Shown here: positions 8,812-59,307 of the stretch, piece after piece
Position numbering within the stretch: the stretch's first letter is position 1
Layout: every line of letters starts with the position of its first letter
Source: Candidatus Acetothermia bacterium
GTDB lineage: Bacteria; Bipolaricaulota; Bipolaricaulia; Bipolaricaulales; Bipolaricaulaceae
Assembly: GCA_003562845.1 (NCBI GenBank)
Contig: PWTL01000087.1
Location: 1,216-65,215 of the forward strand
DNA: 64,000 nucleotides
Direction of reading: 5' to 3'
The notes under the pieces: generated by a model
Seen by the model: only the letters and a program-made list of their open reading frames with translations
Databases searched by the model: none
Told to the model about the DNA's origin: nothing
Position numbers and translations under genes: made by a program

Positions 8812-10722
8812 TCAGAGCTCGGCAGTGCGGGAGCGGGCGGCCTGTTCGATCCGGGCCGCGATCTCCTCTACCTCTTGTGGCCCAAGGTCCTCACCGGTGC
8901 GCAGCCGAAGGGCGACCTTGCCCTCCTCGGCCTCCCGAGGTCCGACCACCAGCATGTACGGGACTTTCTGCAGCTGAGCCTGGCGGATAAGCCAGCGCAG
9001 GGTCTTGCCCGCCCGGCCCCAGGCCTCGGCGCGCACGCCCTCGGCGGTCAGCTGTGCCGCTACTGCCTCGCTGTAGGGGATCTGCTCTTCGGTCACCGGC
9101 AACACCACTGCCTGCACCGGCGCCAGCCAGGGGGGGAACGCACCGCCGTAGTGCTCAATGAGGATCCCCACGAACCGCTCCAGCGCCCCGTACAACGCAC
9201 GGTGGATCATGTACGGTCGGTGCAAGTGTCCATCTTCGCCAGTATAGGACATATCGAACCTCTCGGGGAGGTTGAAGTCGAACTGAATCGTAGTCAGCTG
9301 CCAGGCTCGGCCCAACGAGTCCGCCACATCAATGTCGATCTTCGGGCCGTAGAAGGCCCCGTCTCCCTCTTTGACCTCGTAGCGCATCTCCTCCGCCTGT
9401 ACCGCCCGGCGCAGGGCCTCAGTGGCCAGATCCCACCTCTCGGGCTCCCCGACGAACTTCGCCGGGCGCGTGGAGAGGTAGACAGCGAACTCAGAGAACC
9501 CAGCGGTGCGCAGCATGTGCAGTGCAAACCGCAGAGTGGAGCGTATCTCTTCCTCCACCTGATCGGGCCGGCAGATGATGTGCGCATCGTCCTGGGTGAA
9601 TCCGCGTACCCGCAGCAGCCCGTGCAACACGCCGGAGCGTTCATATCGGTAGACTGTCCCCAGCTCCGCATACCGGACCGGCAGCTCTCGCCAGGAGTGT
9701 GTTCGCGAGTTGTAGATATCGATGTGGAACGGGCAGTTCATGGGTTTGAGGTAGAACTCCTGACCCTCGACGTTCAACGGAGAGTACATGCCCTCGCGAT
9801 AGAACTCCAAGTGTCCCGAACGCTCCCACAGCCGTGCACGACCAATATGCGGACTGCGCACAAGCTGGTACCCATGCCGGTAGTGCTCTCGGACCCAGAA
9901 GTCCTCGAGTTCCTGCCGCACCCGGGCCCCTTTCGGATGCCACAGCACCAAACCCGCACCGATGTCCTCGTTGTTGATGGAAAAGAGCTCCAGCTGCGGC
10001 CCCAGAACACGGTGATCCCGCCGTCGCGCCTCTTCCAGGCGCCGAAGATGTTCCTTCAGCCCCTCCCGACTGGGAAACACAGTGCCGTAGATCCGCGTGA
10101 GCATGGTGCGCTCGGCGTCTCCCCGCCAGTAGGCGCCGGCCAGATCCATGAGCTTGAAGTGCCGCACCCCCCCCGTGCTCAGGATGTGCGGCCCGCGGCA
10201 CAGGTCGATGAACTCCCCTTGCTTGTAGAAAGAGATTTCCCTTTGCTGTAAATCGTCGAGGAGCTCTTGCTTGTACACCTCCCCTCCGCGGCGGAGGAGC
10301 TCAACCGCCTCCGCCTTGGGCAGCTCTACGCGCTCAATGGGGAGATCTTCCTTGACGATCTTCCCCATTTCCTGTTCGATCCTCTCCAGATCCTCGGATC
10401 GGGGGGGCTCGGGGAACTCGAAGTCGTAGTAGAACCCATCACGGATCGCCGGGCCAATGGCCAGCTTGACATCCGGGAACAAGCGCCTGACGGCGTGAGC
10501 GAGGACGTGGGCGGCGCTGTGTCGCAGCACCTCGAGGGCGAGGGGATCTTCTGCAGTGACCAGGCGGATTCTTCCCGTGGCGGGGAGGCGATCCCGCACG
10601 TCGCACAGCTGGCCGTCTGCGACCATGGCCACTGCGTCTACACCTTGGGCCTGGGCCAGCTCCAGTCCGGTCATGTCTTGAGCTTCAACAACCTCGCCGT
10701 CAGGAAGCTCCACAGCGGCCAT
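8812..10722 (-). CDS. thrS: Threonyl-tRNA synthetase
   Basis: ATG at 10722 is preceded by GGGAGGTGG. TGS-like N-terminus, editing-domain HxxxH (RHSAAHVLAHA), class II catalytic core and an anticodon-binding C-terminus; 636 aa. Confidence 0.9.
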   Translation of the reverse strand: MAAVELPDGEVVEAQDMTGLELAQAQGVDAVAMVADGQLCDVRDRLPATGRIRLVTAEDPLALEVLRHSAAHVLAHAVRRLFPDVKLAIGPAIRDGFYYDFEFPEPPRSEDLERIEQEMGKIVKEDLPIERVELPKAEAVELLRRGGEVYKQELLDDLQQREISFYKQGEFIDLCRGPHILSTGGVRHFKLMDLAGAYWRGDAERTMLTRIYGTVFPSREGLKEHLRRLEEARRRDHRVLGPQLELFSINNEDIGAGLVLWHPKGARVRQELEDFWVREHYRHGYQLVRSPHIGRARLWERSGHLEFYREGMYSPLNVEGQEFYLKPMNCPFHIDIYNSRTHSWRELPVRYAELGTVYRYERSGVLHGLLRVRGFTQDDAHIICRPDQVEEEIRSTLRFALHMLRTAGFSEFAVYLSTRPAKFVGEPERWDLATEALRRAVQAEEMRYEVKEGDGAFYGPKIDIDVADSLGRAWQLTTIQFDFNLPERFDMSYTGEDGHLHRPYMIHRALYGALERFVGILIEHYGGAFPPWLAPVQAVVLPVTEEQIPYSEAVAAQLTAEGVRAEAWGRAGKTLRWLIRQAQLQKVPYMLVVGPREAEEGKVALRLRTGEDLGPQEVEEIAARIEQAARSRTAEL

Positions 10723-24591: not shown

Positions 24592-25537
24592 GCCGAAGAT
24601 CGCCATGTACTGGACCGGAGGCTGCGGTGGGTGTGACGTTTCTCCGCTGGAGGTAGGGGAGGCAATCGTGGACGTCCTGTCTCAGGTGGAGATAGCTTTC
24701 TGGCCCGCGCTCATGGACGCCAAACGCGCTGACGTGGAGGCGCTGCCCGCCGGAGGCATCGACGTGGCGCTGATCAACGGTGCCCTGCGCACTGAAGATA
24801 ACGTGGAGATGGTCCGCCTTCTCCGGGAGAAGTCCAAGCTGGTGGTGGCTTACGGGGCCTGTGCGCACTTGGGGGGGATCATCGGGCTGGGCAATCTGCA
24901 CTCCGCGCAGTCGCTCGTGTCCACAGCGCTGGGTCCAGGCTGGCACGCGGGATCCCCTTCTTTCAGCGCGAACGGGGATGCACCACCACCCCTGACTGCT
25001 GGAGTAGTGCCCCTAGCGGACGTCATTGCTGTGGACTACGTGGTGCCCGGGTGCCCTCCGCCCGCCCAGCTGATCGGCCTCTTCTTCCAGACGCTTCTGG
25101 GAGGGGAGATGCCGAGCCCTGGCCATGTGTTTGCTGAGGAGAAGGCGCTCTGTGATCAGTGCCCGCGGGAGAAGGAAGATCGGCGCTTGGAGAAGTTCGT
25201 GCGCCCGCACGAGATGGAACCCGATCCCGACAGGTGCCTTCTGGACCAAGGGATAGTGTGCATGGGGCCGGTGACCAGGGGCGGGTGCGAGGCCGCTTGT
25301 CCCGCTTTGGGCATGCCCTGCACCGGCTGTGTTGGTCCGACCCGTAAGGCGGGGGACCTGGCTGGGGGCATGATCTCCGCATTGGCTTCTCTGGTCCGGG
25401 CCGGAGATGAAGGAGAGGACGCGTTCGCGCGAGAGGACGAGGTACTCGCCGGGCTAGTCGATCCGGTGGGGACCTTGTACAAGTACGCTCTGGCCACGAC
25501 TTGGAAGCGGCGCGAGACGGGAGGAGAAGACGCATGA
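24584..25537 (+). CDS. mvhG: [NiFe] hydrogenase small subunit (Mvh/group 3-like)
   Basis: N-terminus KIAMYWTGGCGGCDVS, then GACAHLGG and distal Cys clusters (CDQC, GCEAACP, CTGC). No Tat signal, so cytoplasmic. Overlaps mvhD by 8 nt. Confidence 0.85.
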   Translation: MAKPKIAMYWTGGCGGCDVSPLEVGEAIVDVLSQVEIAFWPALMDAKRADVEALPAGGIDVALINGALRTEDNVEMVRLLREKSKLVVAYGACAHLGGIIGLGNLHSAQSLVSTALGPGWHAGSPSFSANGDAPPPLTAGVVPLADVIAVDYVVPGCPPPAQLIGLFFQTLLGGEMPSPGHVFAEEKALCDQCPREKEDRRLEKFVRPHEMEPDPDRCLLDQGIVCMGPVTRGGCEAACPALGMPCTGCVGPTRKAGDLAGGMISALASLVRAGDEGEDAFAREDEVLAGLVDPVGTLYKYALATTWKRRETGGEDA

Positions 25538-26991
25538 GCGCAAAGAGGATTGCCATCGACCCCATCACGCGCCTGGAGGGACACGGAAAGATCCTCCTGT
25601 ACTTGGACGAGCAAGGCGGCCTCCAGGATGCGGTCCTCCAAGTCCCCGAGCTGCGGGGCTTCGAAAGGTTCTGCGTGGGGCGTCGGGGAGAGGAGATGCC
25701 GCAGATCACCGAGCGTATCTGTGGGGTGTGCCCGGAGGCGCATCACCTAGCCTCGGCCAAGGCGCTGGACGACGCATTCGGTGCACAGGTGCCCCAAGCA
25801 GCGCGGGCGCAGCGGGAGCTGTTCTACAACACGTACATTTTCTCCGACCATCTGCTGCATCTGGTGTTCCTCGGGGGACCGGACCTTCTGCTGGACGAGG
25901 ACACGCCGAAAGAACAGCGCAACGTGTTGGGCGTACTGCAGGCCTATCCCGAGCTGGGAAAGCGAGTGGTGAAGGTCCGCGCGGGCGCGCAGAAGCTGCT
26001 GGAGCTGGTGGGAGGACGCCCCATCCATCCGGTATTCGCCCTGCCCGGCGGGGTGTCCCAGCCGTTGAGCGAGGAGAAGGTCGAGGAGATACAGGCGTAC
26101 ACCAAGGCCATGCAGGAGCTGGCCGTGGACATGATCTCTTTCTTCCATGAGGAGGTCCTTCCCGATCCCGGCCTGCAGGCACTCCTTCTCTCCCCTGAGG
26201 CCCGCCTCCCCGTGCACTTCATGGGGCTTGTAGACGAGGAGCTGGCGCCCAACTTCTACGACGGCAAGCTGCGGGTTGTCTCCTGCGATGGGGAGGAGCT
26301 GTTCCTGGGGGACCCCCGCCAGGGATTGTCCCTGTTCGAGGAGCACAGCGAGCCGTGGACCTACGTCAAGTTCCCGTACCTCAAGCAGTTCGGATGGGCC
26401 GGGCTCAGGGCAGGGTCGGAGTCTGGGCTGTATCAGGTTGGCCCCTTGGCCCGCCTCAACGTGGCCGAGAAAATGGCTACCCCGGCCGCTCAGGAGGAGT
26501 TCGAGCGCTTCTTCGACTACTTCGACGAGCGGCCGGTGCACGCCACGTTCGCCTATCACTGGGCACGCTTGGTGGAGATGGTCCAGGCCGCCGAGGCGGC
26601 CCACGCGCTCGCTTTCGACAAGAGCCTCACCGGGCGCGATGTGCGGGGGAAACTATCCGCTCCCGGGGAGGGGATCGGGGTAATCGAAGCCGCCCGGGGC
26701 ACGTTGTTTCACGAGTACAAGCTGGACGAACAGGGCCTGATGAAGCATGTGAACTTGGTAGTGGCCACCACGCACAACGCCGGACCGATCAGCATGTCGG
26801 TGAAGGCGATGGCCGAGGCTGCTGTGCGACAGGGGGACCTGGACGAGCGTTTGCTGAACAGAGTGGAAATGGCTTTCCGCGCTTACGATCCCTGCCTGGC
26901 TTGTGCCACTCATTTCCTGCCCGGGGAGCTCCCGCTTCAAGTGGAGGTGTACGGACCCGATGGGACTGTCCTGCGGCGCGTCCGGCGCTGA
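25534..26991 (+). CDS. mvhA: [NiFe] hydrogenase large subunit (Mvh/group 3-like)
   Basis: ITRLEGHG, N-terminal Ni ligands RICGVCPEAHH, C-terminal ligands DPCLACATH followed by a 25-aa cleavable tail. ATGA overlap with the small-subunit gene. Confidence 0.9.
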   Translation: MSAKRIAIDPITRLEGHGKILLYLDEQGGLQDAVLQVPELRGFERFCVGRRGEEMPQITERICGVCPEAHHLASAKALDDAFGAQVPQAARAQRELFYNTYIFSDHLLHLVFLGGPDLLLDEDTPKEQRNVLGVLQAYPELGKRVVKVRAGAQKLLELVGGRPIHPVFALPGGVSQPLSEEKVEEIQAYTKAMQELAVDMISFFHEEVLPDPGLQALLLSPEARLPVHFMGLVDEELAPNFYDGKLRVVSCDGEELFLGDPRQGLSLFEEHSEPWTYVKFPYLKQFGWAGLRAGSESGLYQVGPLARLNVAEKMATPAAQEEFERFFDYFDERPVHATFAYHWARLVEMVQAAEAAHALAFDKSLTGRDVRGKLSAPGEGIGVIEAARGTLFHEYKLDEQGLMKHVNLVVATTHNAGPISMSVKAMAEAAVRQGDLDERLLNRVEMAFRAYDPCLACATHFLPGELPLQVEVYGPDGTVLRRVRR

Positions 26992-26992
26992 C

Positions 26993-27580
26993 GTGGCGGT
27001 GGTAGGCATGGGCAATCCGTACTGCACGGACGACGGTGTCGGGGTCTCCGTAGTGCGGTCTTTGCCTCCCCGGGAGAACGTCGAGGTGTGGGAGACGGTG
27101 CAAGGGGGGGCGTATCTTGCGCAAACCTTGCTCGGGTATTCCCGCGTCCTCCTTGTGGACGCCGCTCCGTCCCTCCCTCCGGGAGAAGTTCGCCTGCAGC
27201 CCCTGTCCGCGTGGGAGGCCCTCGGTGGGGAGAGGAGAGGTGCCCACGGGCTGAGCCTGACGCAGGCTTTGGAGATGTTGCGGGCCCTGTCCGGCGGGGA
27301 CACCTCGGATGCAGGGTGCGACGTTGCCCTGGGTGATCAGCGTCGCACACAAGGTGCGACGCTACACCAGCCTGAGCGTAGCGTCGGAGCTTGTCTCCGA
27401 CGTGGTGAAGCGTCGCAGACGAGCTGCGACGCTACGGATGTGGGGTTGAAGGTCCCCGAGGTGTGGGCATTGGCCATTGGGGTTCCCCCGGATCCGCCAT
27501 TCGGCGAAGGGCTATCGCCCCGGGTTGCGGCGGCCGTGCCGGCTGCCGTGGAGGAGGTGAGGGGATGGCTGACCAGGTGA
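26993..27580 (+). CDS. Hydrogenase maturation endopeptidase (HycI/FrhD/HoxW family) carrying a ~41-codon insertion
   Basis: GTG at 26993, 1 nt after the mvhA stop. VAVVGMGNPYCTDDGVGV and VLLVDA are protease motifs. The C-terminal part (PEVWALAIGV...GLSPRV) is separated from LEMLRALSGG by a segment encoded by palindromic repeats. Confidence 0.75.
   Translation: MAVVGMGNPYCTDDGVGVSVVRSLPPRENVEVWETVQGGAYLAQTLLGYSRVLLVDAAPSLPPGEVRLQPLSAWEALGGERRGAHGLSLTQALEMLRALSGGDTSDAGCDVALGDQRRTQGATLHQPERSVGACLRRGEASQTSCDATDVGLKVPEVWALAIGVPPDPPFGEGLSPRVAAAVPAAVEEVRGWLTR
27316..27437. repeat. Intragenic cluster of four REP-like palindromic units
   Basis: Four hairpins: GTGCGACG/CGTCGCAC (27316-23 / 27341-48), CGACGCTAC/GTAGCGTCG (27357-65 / 27378-86), CGTCGGAG-cttgt-CTCCGACG (27382-27402) and GCGTCGCAG-acgag-CTGCGACGC (27410-27432), followed by TACGG. 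The same stems recur at 56917-57046. Confidence 0.65.
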
Positions 27581-27966
27581 GATTGTCAAAGGTTGCGCTG
27601 TCGGCGGACTTCGCCCGGCGGGTGGAAGAGCTGTCGGGGCAGTCCCCTTACCGCTGCTATCAATGTGGTAAGTGTGGGGCGGGGTGCCCCTTCGCCGAGT
27701 ACATGGATCTTCTGCCCAGCCAGGTGCTGCGCCTTGTGCAGATTGGAGATGAGAGGGTATTGGACGCCGGCGCTCCGTGGAGCTGCGCCTCGTGTCTCGC
27801 CTGCGAGGTGCGTTGTCCGCGCGGCGTGGACATCGCCAAGGTGATGGAGGCGGTGCGGCTCCTGTCGCTGCGCAAGGGGAGAACGCCGTTCGCAGTGGAC
27901 GAGGCGGCGTCCCGCAGGTTGCCGCAGATTGCCCTTGTGGGGATCACCAGGAAGATGACACCATGA
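27565..27966 (+). CDS. hdrC: Heterodisulfide reductase subunit C-like 4Fe-4S protein
   Basis: ATG at 27565. Two cluster motifs, CYQCGKCGAGCP and CASCLACEVRCP. 133 aa, overlapping the protease end by 16 nt. Confidence 0.8.
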   Translation: MADQVRLSKVALSADFARRVEELSGQSPYRCYQCGKCGAGCPFAEYMDLLPSQVLRLVQIGDERVLDAGAPWSCASCLACEVRCPRGVDIAKVMEAVRLLSLRKGRTPFAVDEAASRRLPQIALVGITRKMTP

Positions 27967-56916: not shown

Positions 56917-57046
56917 CACCGTCGGAGATAAACTCCGACGCTACGGGCAATAAACCGTCGGAGATAAACTGCAACCACCGTCTACCACCGGATCCGTAGC
57001 GTCGCACGTTGCGTGCGACGTTAAACGCAGCTTGTCTGCGACGTTG
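56917..57046. repeat. REP-like palindromic repeat cluster between convergent lptB and lgt, extending into the lgt 3' end
   Basis: CGTCGGAG-ataaa-CTCCGACG plus CTACGG (56920-56946); direct repeat CCGTCGGAGATAAACT (56919-34 and 56955-70); CAACCACCGTC twice; a 9-bp stem CGTCGCACG-ttg-CGTGCGACG (57000-57020); and CGCAGcttgtCTGCGACG (57026-57043) inside lgt. Same family as 27316-27437. Confidence 0.6.
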
Positions 57047-57830
57047 GGTCCCGAGGGGAGGCCCGCCACAGCCGGCGGCGCCACATCCACAATCCGAACA
57101 CAGCTACTAGCAGCACGCTCGCGACTTGCGCCCCTCTGATCGGTCCCAACATCAGCGCATCCCCGCGCACGAACTCGCAGGGAAAGCGCACCAGCGAGTA
57201 GCCTATGAAATAGAGCGCAGTCAAGAATCCCGCCCGGGCAGGTCTCTTACGCAGTCGCCACAGCAGCGCGAACAGGAGCAAAAGCCCCACCATCTCGTAC
57301 AGCATTGCTGGGTGTAGTGGTTGGCCGGGATAGGCCCAGCCGGCGGGGCTGTCGTCCGGGAACACCAGTCCCCAAGGCAGGGTTGTGGGCGTGCCGAATG
57401 CGTCGCCATTCAGGAAGTTGCCCAGCCTGACCAAGGCCTGCCCCAGAAGTACCGCCGGAACCACCGCGTCCGCCGTCGGCCACAGGGGCAGGCGCTTCCA
57501 CCGGGAGAATATCCACAGCCCGAGGGTCCCCCCGATGAGCCCTCCGTGTATGGCCAACCCTCCTCGCCACAGCATGGGGATCTCCCACAGGTTGTCCTGG
57601 TACCAACTCCACTGGAAGGCCACGTAGTACAGGCGAGCCATTATCAGTCCCAAGGGGATGGCCACCAGCAGCAGATCCACCGCGGCTTCTGCCCCCAACC
57701 CCCGGTCCACTAATCCTCTGCGGCGGGCTTCGGCGCGGACGAGGAAGAACCCGAGTACGAGGGCGATGACGTACATCAGTCCGTAGTAGCGGATCTCCAC
57801 TGGTCCCAAGCGCAAGAACACTGGGTGCAC
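57021..57830 (-). CDS. lgt: Prolipoprotein diacylglyceryl transferase
   Basis: GTG at 57830 is preceded by AGGAGGTGG. YYGLMYVIALVLGF, WRGGLAIHGGLIGG and RLGNFLNGDAFG. The last 9 codons are encoded by the repeat element. Confidence 0.88.
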   Translation of the reverse strand: MHPVFLRLGPVEIRYYGLMYVIALVLGFFLVRAEARRRGLVDRGLGAEAAVDLLLVAIPLGLIMARLYYVAFQWSWYQDNLWEIPMLWRGGLAIHGGLIGGTLGLWIFSRWKRLPLWPTADAVVPAVLLGQALVRLGNFLNGDAFGTPTTLPWGLVFPDDSPAGWAYPGQPLHPAMLYEMVGLLLLFALLWRLRKRPARAGFLTALYFIGYSLVRFPCEFVRGDALMLGPIRGAQVASVLLVAVFGLWMWRRRLWRASPRDPTSQTSCV

Positions 57831-57864
57831 GGTCCACCTCCTGCGCTGATTATAATGGCAACAC

Positions 57865-59307
57865 ATGGAGTGGAGATTGCGCGTGGCCGGCGCTGGGGGA
57901 TTCGCGGCCCTGTTGTGGGCCGCGTTTTACCCAGGATTGAGCTTGCTGGTGTGGCCGGCAATGGCCGGGCTGTTCTTGGTTCTCTCCGGGCGGGGAGCAA
58001 GACGCGGTGCCGTGGCCGGAGCAGTGGCAGGATTCGTCTTCTTTGCCCTCACCTTCACTTCCGTATTCGAGCTGTGGACATTTGTCGGTCCTCTTGCCGC
58101 TCCACTGTGGGTGCTCGCGGCCGTGTACGGAGCGCTCTACATGGCTGTGCTCGGCGCAGCGGTGGGGCGGTGGTCGTCGCCGTTGGTGGGGGCGGGCACC
58201 TGGGTGCTCCTGGAGATGGTGCGGGCCGCGGGACCGTTCGGTGTGGCCTTCGGCAGCCTCCCCGTGGCGTTAGCCGTTCCTCCGCTGGTCGGGGCGGCGG
58301 CAATAGGAGGGGCATGGCTGCTTTCCCTGGCAGCCGCGTGGACGGGCGCTTGTCTGGCCGCCGGAGCGCGGAGGAGCAGGCACTGGATCGCGCTGGCCAT
58401 TCTGGGCCCGGCGGTGCTCCTCGTGGGCGCTGGCGTGGGTTCTGACACCGAACAGACAGGCACGCTACAGGCGGCTGTTGTGCAGACCGGGGTTCCCCAG
58501 GAGCAGCGGCTGGATCCCAGGCAAGTTCCGGCGCTCATGGAGCGCTATGCCGACCTCTTATCCAGGCTGGAGGGGCCGGTGGACTTCGTGGTGTTCCCGG
58601 AGACCGTGCTGCCGGTCCCCCTGCGGGCTGAGCCGGACTATTTGGTTCCGTTTCAGGAGGCTGCGCGCCGGTTGGGCGCCGAGTTGCTTGTAGGCACAGG
58701 TGACTGGCGCGAGGGCAAGATCTACAACTCCGTGCTCCTCCTGGACCGGGACGGAGAGGTAGCCGGCATATACGACAAGACCCATCTCGTGCCCTTTGGG
58801 GAGTATCTTCCGGCGCGAGACCTGTGGGAGTCCCTGGGGCTGGGTCCTCTACTGGAGGAACTCCTCCCGCACGACCTGGCCCACGGGCAACGCAGCGATT
58901 CCCTGGGCATCTACGGCGTGCAGATCTGCTTTGAGTCGCAGTTCTCCGCTGGGGCGCGGCGGCTGGTGGCCCAAGGGGCGGAAATCCTCGTGGTTCCCAC
59001 AAACGACGCTTGGTTCGGCGAGCACCGCATGCTGTGGGAACATTTCGCCTTCGGTGCGCTGCGCGCGGCGGAGCAGGGGAGAGCGTTCGTCCACGCCACG
59101 AGCACCGGCGTAAGCGGGGCGTTCTCTCCTACAGGGCAGCTGCTGGGCAAGCTCCCCTTGGGAGAGCCGGGCGTGCTGCATGTCGCCCTCCCGCTGCACC
59201 GGGGGACGACGCCGTACGCCGCTGTCGGGGACTGGCCAGTGCTGGGATTGGCGGTGCTGCTGCTTGTAGGGGGAGTGCTGTGGGAAGAGAGGGCGAGGCG
59301 CCATTAG
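57865..59307 (+). CDS. lnt: Apolipoprotein N-acyltransferase
   Basis: N-terminal polytopic domain plus a C-terminal CN-hydrolase domain carrying the E-K-C triad contexts (VVFPETV, YDKTHLVPFGEY, ICFESQF). Confidence 0.85.
   Translation: MEWRLRVAGAGGFAALLWAAFYPGLSLLVWPAMAGLFLVLSGRGARRGAVAGAVAGFVFFALTFTSVFELWTFVGPLAAPLWVLAAVYGALYMAVLGAAVGRWSSPLVGAGTWVLLEMVRAAGPFGVAFGSLPVALAVPPLVGAAAIGGAWLLSLAAAWTGACLAAGARRSRHWIALAILGPAVLLVGAGVGSDTEQTGTLQAAVVQTGVPQEQRLDPRQVPALMERYADLLSRLEGPVDFVVFPETVLPVPLRAEPDYLVPFQEAARRLGAELLVGTGDWREGKIYNSVLLLDRDGEVAGIYDKTHLVPFGEYLPARDLWESLGLGPLLEELLPHDLAHGQRSDSLGIYGVQICFESQFSAGARRLVAQGAEILVVPTNDAWFGEHRMLWEHFAFGALRAAEQGRAFVHATSTGVSGAFSPTGQLLGKLPLGEPGVLHVALPLHRGTTPYAAVGDWPVLGLAVLLLVGGVLWEERARRH

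Follow-up and report, generated by a model that had tools for sequence, protein, structure and literature searches.

A REP-like palindrome cluster apparently read through in frame in a [NiFe] hydrogenase maturation protease gene of Candidatus Bipolaricaulota

The protease gene of an mvh-hdr operon contains palindromic units

The stretch of DNA analyzed here, a window of 64,000 nucleotides from contig PWTL01000087.1 of a soda-lake Candidatus Bipolaricaulota metagenome-assembled genome (MAG), contains a hydrogenase operon with the gene order hdrA-mvhD-mvhG-mvhA-protease-hdrC-hdrB, which is conserved in all relatives examined. The protease gene encodes a [NiFe] hydrogenase maturation endopeptidase, shares 32 nt with the end of mvhA and 16 nt with the start of hdrC, and carries within its coding sequence a cluster of short palindromic units resembling repetitive extragenic palindromes (REPs). 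A first-pass annotation, made from the sequence alone, had described this cluster as four consecutive hairpins placed in frame inside the gene; the translation bears out that the open reading frame (ORF) stays open across the cluster and that the peptide quoted for it is exact. The features of the locus are the following, with L and P numbers denoting the other loci and proteins compared, respectively:

25501-26991, plus strand: MvhA-type [NiFe] large subunit, presumed substrate of the protease (from the translation; Pfam NiFeSe_Hases/HoxH on the identical gene in L001)
26960-27580, plus strand: [NiFe] hydrogenase maturation endopeptidase gene, 206 aa, with TIGR00072 and Pfam HycI matches
27293-27439, plus strand: segment of about 49 codons absent from insertion-free orthologues (residues ~112-160, GGDTSDAGCDV...SQTSCDAT(D))
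27316-27326, plus strand: 3' arm remnant (GTGCGACGTTG) of a 5'-truncated REP unit, pairing with the 5' arm of unit A (inverted repeat I4)
27341-27365, minus strand: REP unit A, CGTCGCAC-acaag-GTGCGACG-CTAC, with GTAG on the minus strand; reads RRTQGATL
27378-27402, plus strand: REP unit B, GTAG-CGTCGGAG-cttgt-CTCCGACG; reads SVGACLRR
27411-27435, minus strand: REP unit C, CGTCGCAG-acgag-CTGCGACG-CTAC; reads SQTSCDAT
27378-27435, no strand assigned: inverted doublet B+C, complete GTAG...CTAC, 58 nt, REPIN-like (a pair of inverted REPs)

The protease matches TIGR00072 well (4.2e-22; 78.7 bits for a cutoff of 47.45) and the HycI family PF01750 barely above its cutoff (25.1 bits for a cutoff of 23), and both matches end at residue ~110, where the insert starts. 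The alignment with HybD of E. coli covers only query residues 12-108 and 173-202. Within it, residues D24/D25, D67 and H96 align to HybD E16, D62 and H93, which we take to be the metal-binding acidic, acidic and histidine residues, and they are invariant in alignments of 16 and of 15 sequences. An AlphaFold model of the protease (predicted template modelling score 0.71; predicted local distance difference test values, pLDDT, of 84-98 in the core) finds its best Foldseek matches among HybD and HycI structures, namely 1cfz (HybD; E 8e-8, TM score 0.74 normalised to the target), 5ija and 2e85, and the protein is accordingly predicted to have the HybD-type alpha/beta fold. The translated MvhA ends in DPCLACATH followed by an extension of 25 aa; judged by this CxxC-x2-H motif and the adjacent protease gene, it has the presumably cleavable extension of a partner of HybD/HycI/FrhD-type proteases.

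Over the 42 codons downstream of the insert the ratio of nonsynonymous to synonymous divergence (dN/dS) is 0.01-0.22, with dS values of up to 0.85. Selection on these codons is strong, from which it follows that every lineage translates them in this frame. By these measures the protease gene appears to be functional and to be read through the REP insert, and its catalytic core is intact.

Extent and structure of the insert

Alignment with the insertion-free orthologues P0003, P0015, P0019 and P0038 bounds the insert at ~49 extra codons, of which about 120 nt are recognisably REP-derived. The extra residues seen in the first-pass annotation are hence real, while its figure of 41 codons was too low. 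Its four hairpins correspond to three perfect GTAG-tagged units and a truncated fourth; the first two of its hairpins (GTGCGACG and CGACGCTAC) pair arms of neighbouring units, and the 10-bp stem that unit A forms by itself had been missed. Read along the gene, the order is a plus-strand remnant, A(-), B(+) and C(-), and the remnant equals the 3' arm plus TT tail of intact plus-strand units (57013-57022 in the window; L002 10504; L105 449).

Folded as single-stranded DNA, single REP units reach z-scores of -4.4 to -7.3, the lowest being that of unit A (-13.5 kcal/mol), and the B+C doublet, whose arms are 88% complementary (inverted repeat I1), forms one long hairpin (-27.7 kcal/mol, z = -7.15). 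The RNA of positions 27290-27470 is likewise strongly structured, folding at -103.9 kcal/mol (z = -6.1). As can be read directly from the sequence, of the six frames in which a unit can be read, one alone contains a stop codon (the TAG of GTAG), so that survival in frame is easy. The peptide encoded by the insert has three cysteines in the window protein, and SVGACLR and GEASQTSCDATDVGLK are predicted as insert-derived tryptic peptides.

In the AlphaFold model the insert is located between the helix of residues 100-112, which follows the ligand His96, and the strand of residues 167-174, and its pLDDT stays below 50 at residues ~119-159. The first-pass annotation had placed the insert in a surface loop, in agreement with both this model and the HybD alignment, and the insert apparently adds disordered residues to a surface turn.

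A perfect 9-nt inverted repeat, ACACCTCGG (27300-27308) and CCGAGGTGT (27456-27464), brackets the insert and closes the predicted RNA fold. As a terminal inverted repeat it was rejected: its right arm is conserved PEVW coding sequence that is kept in insertion-free orthologues, and a 9-mer match within 250 nt is not improbable and probably due to chance. A CRISPR remnant, an intein and a tandem repeat were also discarded, as neither spacers nor intein motifs are present and successive units change orientation. Terminator and promoter scans of positions 26900-27700 found nothing, and an Rfam search (E <= 1) returned no family, only a single meaningless snoRNA match.

A GTAG-tagged repeat family associated with RAYT genes in related sequences

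Five perfect hairpins of the form CGTCG-NNN-N5-NNN'-CGACG are present in the window (at 27341, 27382, 27411, 56920 and 57000), grouped into two clusters in 64 kb, one in the protease gene and one at 56917-57046. The pattern CGTCGSAG-N5-CTSCGACG has three matches in the window where 0.00 are expected, with no match of any kind in 100 shuffles, and GTAGCGTCG has five where 0.51 are expected, all five within the two REP loci; the palindromic cluster is thus real and its motif clearly above chance. Units measure 25 nt and consist of a perfect stem of 8-10 bp and a 5-nt loop that follows the orientation (cttgt-like in plus-strand units), and GTAG, or CTAC on the other strand, directly abuts the stem in all five intact units of the window. 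The consensus is GTAG-CGTCGSNS-cttgt-SNSCGACG-TT.

The same repeat is abundant elsewhere. The exact 25-mer GTAGCGTCGSASCTTGTSTSCGACG was found in at least 120 metagenome contigs, and among the matches listed these contigs hold 274 units in 621 kb. Neighbouring units in the listed loci are mostly in alternating orientation (70 pairs +- or -+, 11 pairs ++ or --), and only ~4-5 of the 160 REP clusters there are credibly intragenic. Genes of the REP-associated tyrosine transposase (RAYT; Y1/HUH) type are flanked by or adjoin these REPs at five independent loci (L151, L202 and L199, which are among the metagenome contigs with the exact 25-mer, and L252 and L250), with scores of 1e-12 to 1e-17 for Pfam Y1_Tnp and of 1e-15 for E. 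coli RayT. At L252 the RAYT gene is flanked by the exact sequence of unit B of the window. L250 belongs to the complete genome of Candidatus Bipolaricaulota sp. J31, for which NCBI names the gene 'REP-associated tyrosine transposase'; here it is surrounded by densely packed GTAG-CGTCGGGC-tttac-GCCCGACG-TT / AA-CGTCGCAT-gtaaa-ATGCGACG-CTAC doublets, which share the architecture of the B+C doublet of the window, with ~45 units in 20 kb that all lie in gaps between called genes. Because the exact unit occurs in at least 120 contigs and flanks RAYT genes at five loci, we assign the repeat to the RAYT-type REPs: by its sequence, its architecture and its transposase association in related sequences it is a typical GTAG REP, arranged as bacterial interspersed mosaic elements (BIMEs).

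A scan of genome contigs with the loose pattern GTAGCGTCG-N11-CGACG gave at least 120 matches, mostly in unrelated phyla. In about 40 of the 120 listed, the additional 3 bp are perfectly complementary and the loops are of the cttgt or tttat type, and the hairpin type is therefore widespread. The REP-RAYT class itself is very widely distributed. Hairpins of the form GTAG-CGTCG...CGACG with cttgt, tttat or tttac loops (L009-L128) were seen in Fervidibacter, Planctomycetota, Nitrospirota, Ignavibacteria and Anaerolineales, and Sabulibacter ruber has a TTAC-stem variant. The RAYT gene of L151, on a contig of 42% G+C, is flanked by 10 units.

Closely related genomes differ in REP content at orthologous intergenic sites. 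The spacer between the fumarase alpha and beta genes measures 210 nt in L002 and includes a REP pair (10441-10528), compared with 53 nt without REP in the window and L001; further sites of this kind are L003 12152 and 14191 and L007 17361. Such polymorphism is indirect evidence that the REP family may have been mobile since close relatives split.

The orthologous site across relatives

In an alignment of 16 protease orthologues, the protein P0003 (locus L005; 157 aa), which is the closest to the window protein over the aligned residues (85%), and the distant P0015, P0019 and P0038 have no insert, and ...LRAL-x runs directly into (G/D)xx(V/I)PEVW. Orthologues without the palindromic DNA thus also lack the residues, as expected for an insertion. 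Other relatives have 9-55 extra residues at the identical codon position (range over all orthologues 0-55), and only in-frame versions were seen. At four of five sequenced loci (L002, L003, L004 and L006) it is the same REP units that code for the extra residues, and L007/L008 have a divergent hairpin, GTAG-GGGCGGAG-ttcag-CTCCGCCC, at the site. The arrangement A(-)-spacer-B(+) is common to the window, L004, L003 and L002 in order and position, unit A being found at the orthologous position in all of them; unit C is also present in identical frame in L006.

What is conserved between these loci is the DNA of the units. Those at the site are identical to the window's at 49/50, 43/50 and 45/50 positions, where the synonymous-site rate would predict 72%, 49% and 59%, an excess with P ~1e-6 to 6e-8. 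Unit B is identical at 25/25 positions in L002 and at 24/25 in L004, and in L003 it differs by two compensatory pairs that keep the stem (GGAG/CTCC to GGGC/GCCC). The same unit is nevertheless read differently: unit A gives RRTQGATL in the window vs VAHKVRRY in L004, and the spacers are unalignable and vary in length. With frames switching and spacers beyond alignment, the peptide is therefore not the conserved entity.

Discussion

We consider it likely, from the comparison of sequences, that a permissive turn of the protease houses the insert as a REP passenger that is translated and tolerated. The MvhA-specific endopeptidase gene of this soda-lake MAG would then carry a small BIME-like cluster in which a complete inverted doublet is joined by a second doublet truncated at its 5' end. 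An ancestor of the clade would have received a REP doublet or cluster, and, to judge from other RAYT/REP systems, this presumably entered in single-stranded form with the help of a RAYT (Y1/HUH) transposase of the phylum; the target would have been the codons of a turn of 2-4 residues leading from the alpha-helix after the histidine ligand to the next beta-strand. Since A(-)-spacer-B(+) is shared in order and position, we favour one old insertion followed by local change, in which the cluster grew, shrank and decayed: the window may have gained the truncated unit and unit C, L002 and L006 show partial duplications, L003 and L004 would have lost units and L005 would have none left, and the shorter inserts of P0006 and P0007 suggest further loss. 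It would be the DNA palindrome that is inherited and conserved and not the peptide, and the protease most likely does not need the insert.

Two sets of observations weigh against a passenger of this kind. A neutral passenger should decay, whereas the REP units are conserved far above synonymous sites and their stems are kept by compensatory pairs; besides neutrality, there must therefore be either selection on the hairpins or homogenisation with the REP pool of the genome. The other concerns the transposase. There is no RAYT gene in the 64-kb window, which is only part of its own MAG; with E. coli RayT as the query, phmmer gave no match in the window or in the first 128 loci, a crude HUH-motif filter on ORFs near REPs returned non-coding frames only, and of the RAYT look-ups P0056 and P0126 neither comes from the soda-lake MAG series.

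The conservation of the hairpins could also mean that they are a domesticated cis-element, kept because the RNA or DNA structure benefits the host. Such an element might stabilise the upstream mvhDGA mRNA against 3' exonucleases, be a place where the transcript is processed, or hold back translation of both the protease and the translationally coupled hdrC, and in any of these roles it could set subunit stoichiometry in the mvh-hdr operon. REPs are established as mRNA stabilisers in E. coli (summarised in PMC3733652). A domesticated element would account for units that exceed the synonymous expectation and acquire compensatory changes while spacers and frames drift, for the strong structure of the RNA, and for a site that persists across lineages with dS of 0.5-1.6; in addition, the overlapping genes of the operon leave no intergenic space at the protease. 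However, unit number and identity differ between lineages, the insert has been lost fully in L005/P0003 and nearly so in P0006 and P0007 with the operon otherwise unchanged, and it was never present in the more distant relatives that have this operon. Neither a terminator-like site nor an Rfam family was found in the searches described above, ribosomes translating the ORF would unwind the hairpins, and the conservation could equally result from gene conversion or re-templating by the genomic REP pool. We therefore regard a domesticated element as unlikely. Rather less probable still is the more specific proposal, again argued from sequence, that a cluster retained for long (dS >1 between carriers) and protected by selection acts in cis, as RNA or DNA, within the gap-free mvh-hdr operon and tunes mRNA stability or the translational coupling from protease to hdrC, the loop being the only permissive 'parking place'. 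If this were true, the independent colonisation of another loop of the protease by heptamer palindromes in sister lineages (see below) would follow from selection of the same kind. The first-pass annotation had also proposed an effect of the mRNA structure on translation into hdrCB, which is speculation.

Instead of a single ancestral event, the turn could be a hot spot that was struck separately in each lineage, which we judge improbable. The hairpin of L007/L008 resembles that genome's other variant REP, GTAG-GGTCGCAC, REP presence differs at other orthologous intergenic sites such as the fumarase spacer of L002 and the window, and an unrelated repeat family has colonised a different loop of the protease in other lineages. 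Yet for the window, L004, L003 and L002, which share A(-)-spacer-B(+), common descent is the simplest explanation.

It is very improbable that the peptide itself was selected as an adaptive cysteine-containing loop (GCDV...SVGACLRR...SQTSCDAT) with a part in metal handling, the docking of partners or adaptation to halo-alkaline conditions. Every insert keeps the frame, that of the window has its three cysteines, and SVGACLRR and SQTSCDAT recur in several orthologues, but these motifs are the fixed translations of REP units and also appear in unrelated RNase HII and dehydrogenase ORFs. The reading of one unit in different frames in different orthologues largely refutes such a role, the insert varies from 0 to 55 aa, and AlphaFold gives it no structure (pLDDT <50). 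Finally, a misassembly, a chimeric join or a chance palindrome, conceivable in principle as the source is a MAG, can practically be dismissed in view of the empty shuffles, of two contigs that encode an identical protease protein, and of at least five independent assemblies from different projects (NCBI MAGs, JGI, Logan) that have REPs at the identical codon position, all in frame.

The tolerated passenger, if correctly identified, gives a clear example, spanning several lineages, of an enzyme into which a RAYT-type REP cluster is translated, and does so in a candidate phylum represented mainly by MAGs. Across relatives the site ranges from empty to 55 extra residues, with the palindrome preserved while frame, spacers and peptide drift. 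A HybD/HycI-type turn that tolerates large disordered insertions would be useful for protease engineering or tagging. For annotation pipelines it is of note that profile matches stop at the insert and that Pfam scores are barely above cutoff.

The second cluster of the window and in-frame copies in other genes

The first-pass annotation had noted that the stems of the protease gene recur at 56917-57046 in opposite orientation, and the minus strand there indeed has GTAG-CGTCGGAG-tttat-CTCCGACG. This second cluster, in the order D(-), E(+), lies between a convergent pair of genes, an lptB-like ABC ATPase gene and lgt, and comprises:

56920-56944, minus strand: REP unit D, CGTCGGAG-ataaa-CTCCGACG-CTAC, in the gap between the convergent genes
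56996-57020, plus strand: REP unit E, GTAG-CGTCGCAC-gttgc-GTGCGACG(TT), from the hairpin scan and the single-stranded DNA fold
57030-57046, minus strand: half REP, cttgt-CTGCGACG-TT, supplying part of the last lgt codons

The lgt gene (57021-57926, minus strand; Pfam LGT 8e-71) has its last eight codons (..PTSQTSCV*) partly derived from REP sequence: the half REP encodes PTSQTS, and the stop codon TAA (57021-57023) lies in the region of the TT tail of unit E. In J31 a REP array is also found directly downstream of lgt (L250 3719-4137).

Outside the protease, two RNase HII ORFs that are 64% identical (L243:808-1860, plus strand, and L194:2-946, minus strand) contain several in-frame REP clusters each, at different positions in the domain, which encode RRTQGATLHPS, SVGPCARR, SQTSCDAT and VASGFMPDVE, peptide modules as in the protease insert. 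These inserts fit the reported bias of intragenic REPs to replication and repair genes. A dihydrolipoamide-dehydrogenase-type ORF (L176:922-2337, plus strand) has a single in-frame REP (AQRRTQGPTLQ) between its Pyr_redox_2 and dimerisation domains. An MmeI-type restriction-modification ORF (L189:3119-6775, plus strand) has a REP doublet at residues 207-229 that is possibly intragenic; no domain was found upstream of the REP in this ORF, and its true start is uncertain. A SpoU methylase ORF (L190) was rejected as an intragenic case, its REP lying before every domain match and probably ahead of the true start.

The protease has also been entered by a second, unrelated palindromic family, in-frame inverted heptamer arrays of GTGATCC/GGATCAC in the loop after the first helix. 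They are carried by more distant Bipolaricaulota, including the J31 protease (L251 6100-6190) and P0020-P0025, P0030 and P0036-P0039, and encode peptides of the type SVIRDPLSV...GSRITDH in variable copy number. The heptamers are also present in two other genes of the J31 operon (L251 3590-3625 and 7088-7095). The mvhD-mvhG gap of J31 holds a gene with a 23S_rRNA_IVP domain (PF05635; L251 3194-3640) that the window operon does not have.

Comparison with known systems

The closest precedent is the work of Di Nocera, De Gregorio and Rocco (2013, BMC Genomics 14:522; PMC3733652), who defined GTAG- and CGTC-tagged REP superfamilies and described in-frame REPs in genes whose function is known, where a dimer contributes 20-30 aa and a cluster 43-82 aa. 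Their intragenic inserts were argued to sit in loops or linkers, with emphasis on replication and repair genes. The GTAG REPs of that study, like the units of the window, have a GTAG tag at one end, a short stem-loop (6-9 bp) and opposite-orientation dimers or clusters, and like the window's family in related sequences they are RAYT-associated and mostly extragenic, with some in frame in genes. The CGTCG-stem family is likened to the GTAG superfamily by these features. New relative to the study are the host phylum, Bipolaricaulota, and the host gene, 'hydrogenase' being absent from the main text of the paper; furthermore, the window site can be traced across a clade, in which it varies in length and switches frame and its units are conserved above the neutral level.

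With the REPINs and REP-RAYT systems (Nunvar et al., 2010, PMC2817692; Bertels and Rainey, 2011, PMC3116915) the family shares the formation of a larger hairpin by two inverted REPs, a RAYT gene flanked by its REPs (here in related genomes), vertical inheritance and long persistence at orthologous sites. Classical REPINs are extragenic, in contrast to the window copy inside an ORF, and mobility is suggested here only by presence/absence polymorphism. In E. coli BIMEs (e.g. malE-malF), alternating-orientation REP clusters likewise occur within polycistronic units and the structured RNA could affect mRNA fate, but they are located between genes and not within an ORF.

Rickettsia palindromic elements (RPEs), which the first-pass annotation had invoked, are an apt analogy, although the intragenic GTAG REPs of PMC3733652 are closer. 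As far as they are presented there (Ogata et al., 2000, as cited in PMC3733652), they too are in-frame palindromes in genes that stay functional, typically surface-exposed. RPE-1 is described as a longer insert specific to Rickettsia, and RPE-4 and RPE-6 were placed in the CGTC-tagged superfamily, with no dedicated transposase known; the window element is GTAG-tagged and RAYT-associated. The relationship to RPEs is, from these descriptions of tag type and RAYT association, one of analogy and not of membership. The insert in the protease is thus no new kind of system; it extends a phenomenon that is rare but on record to a new phylum and host gene.

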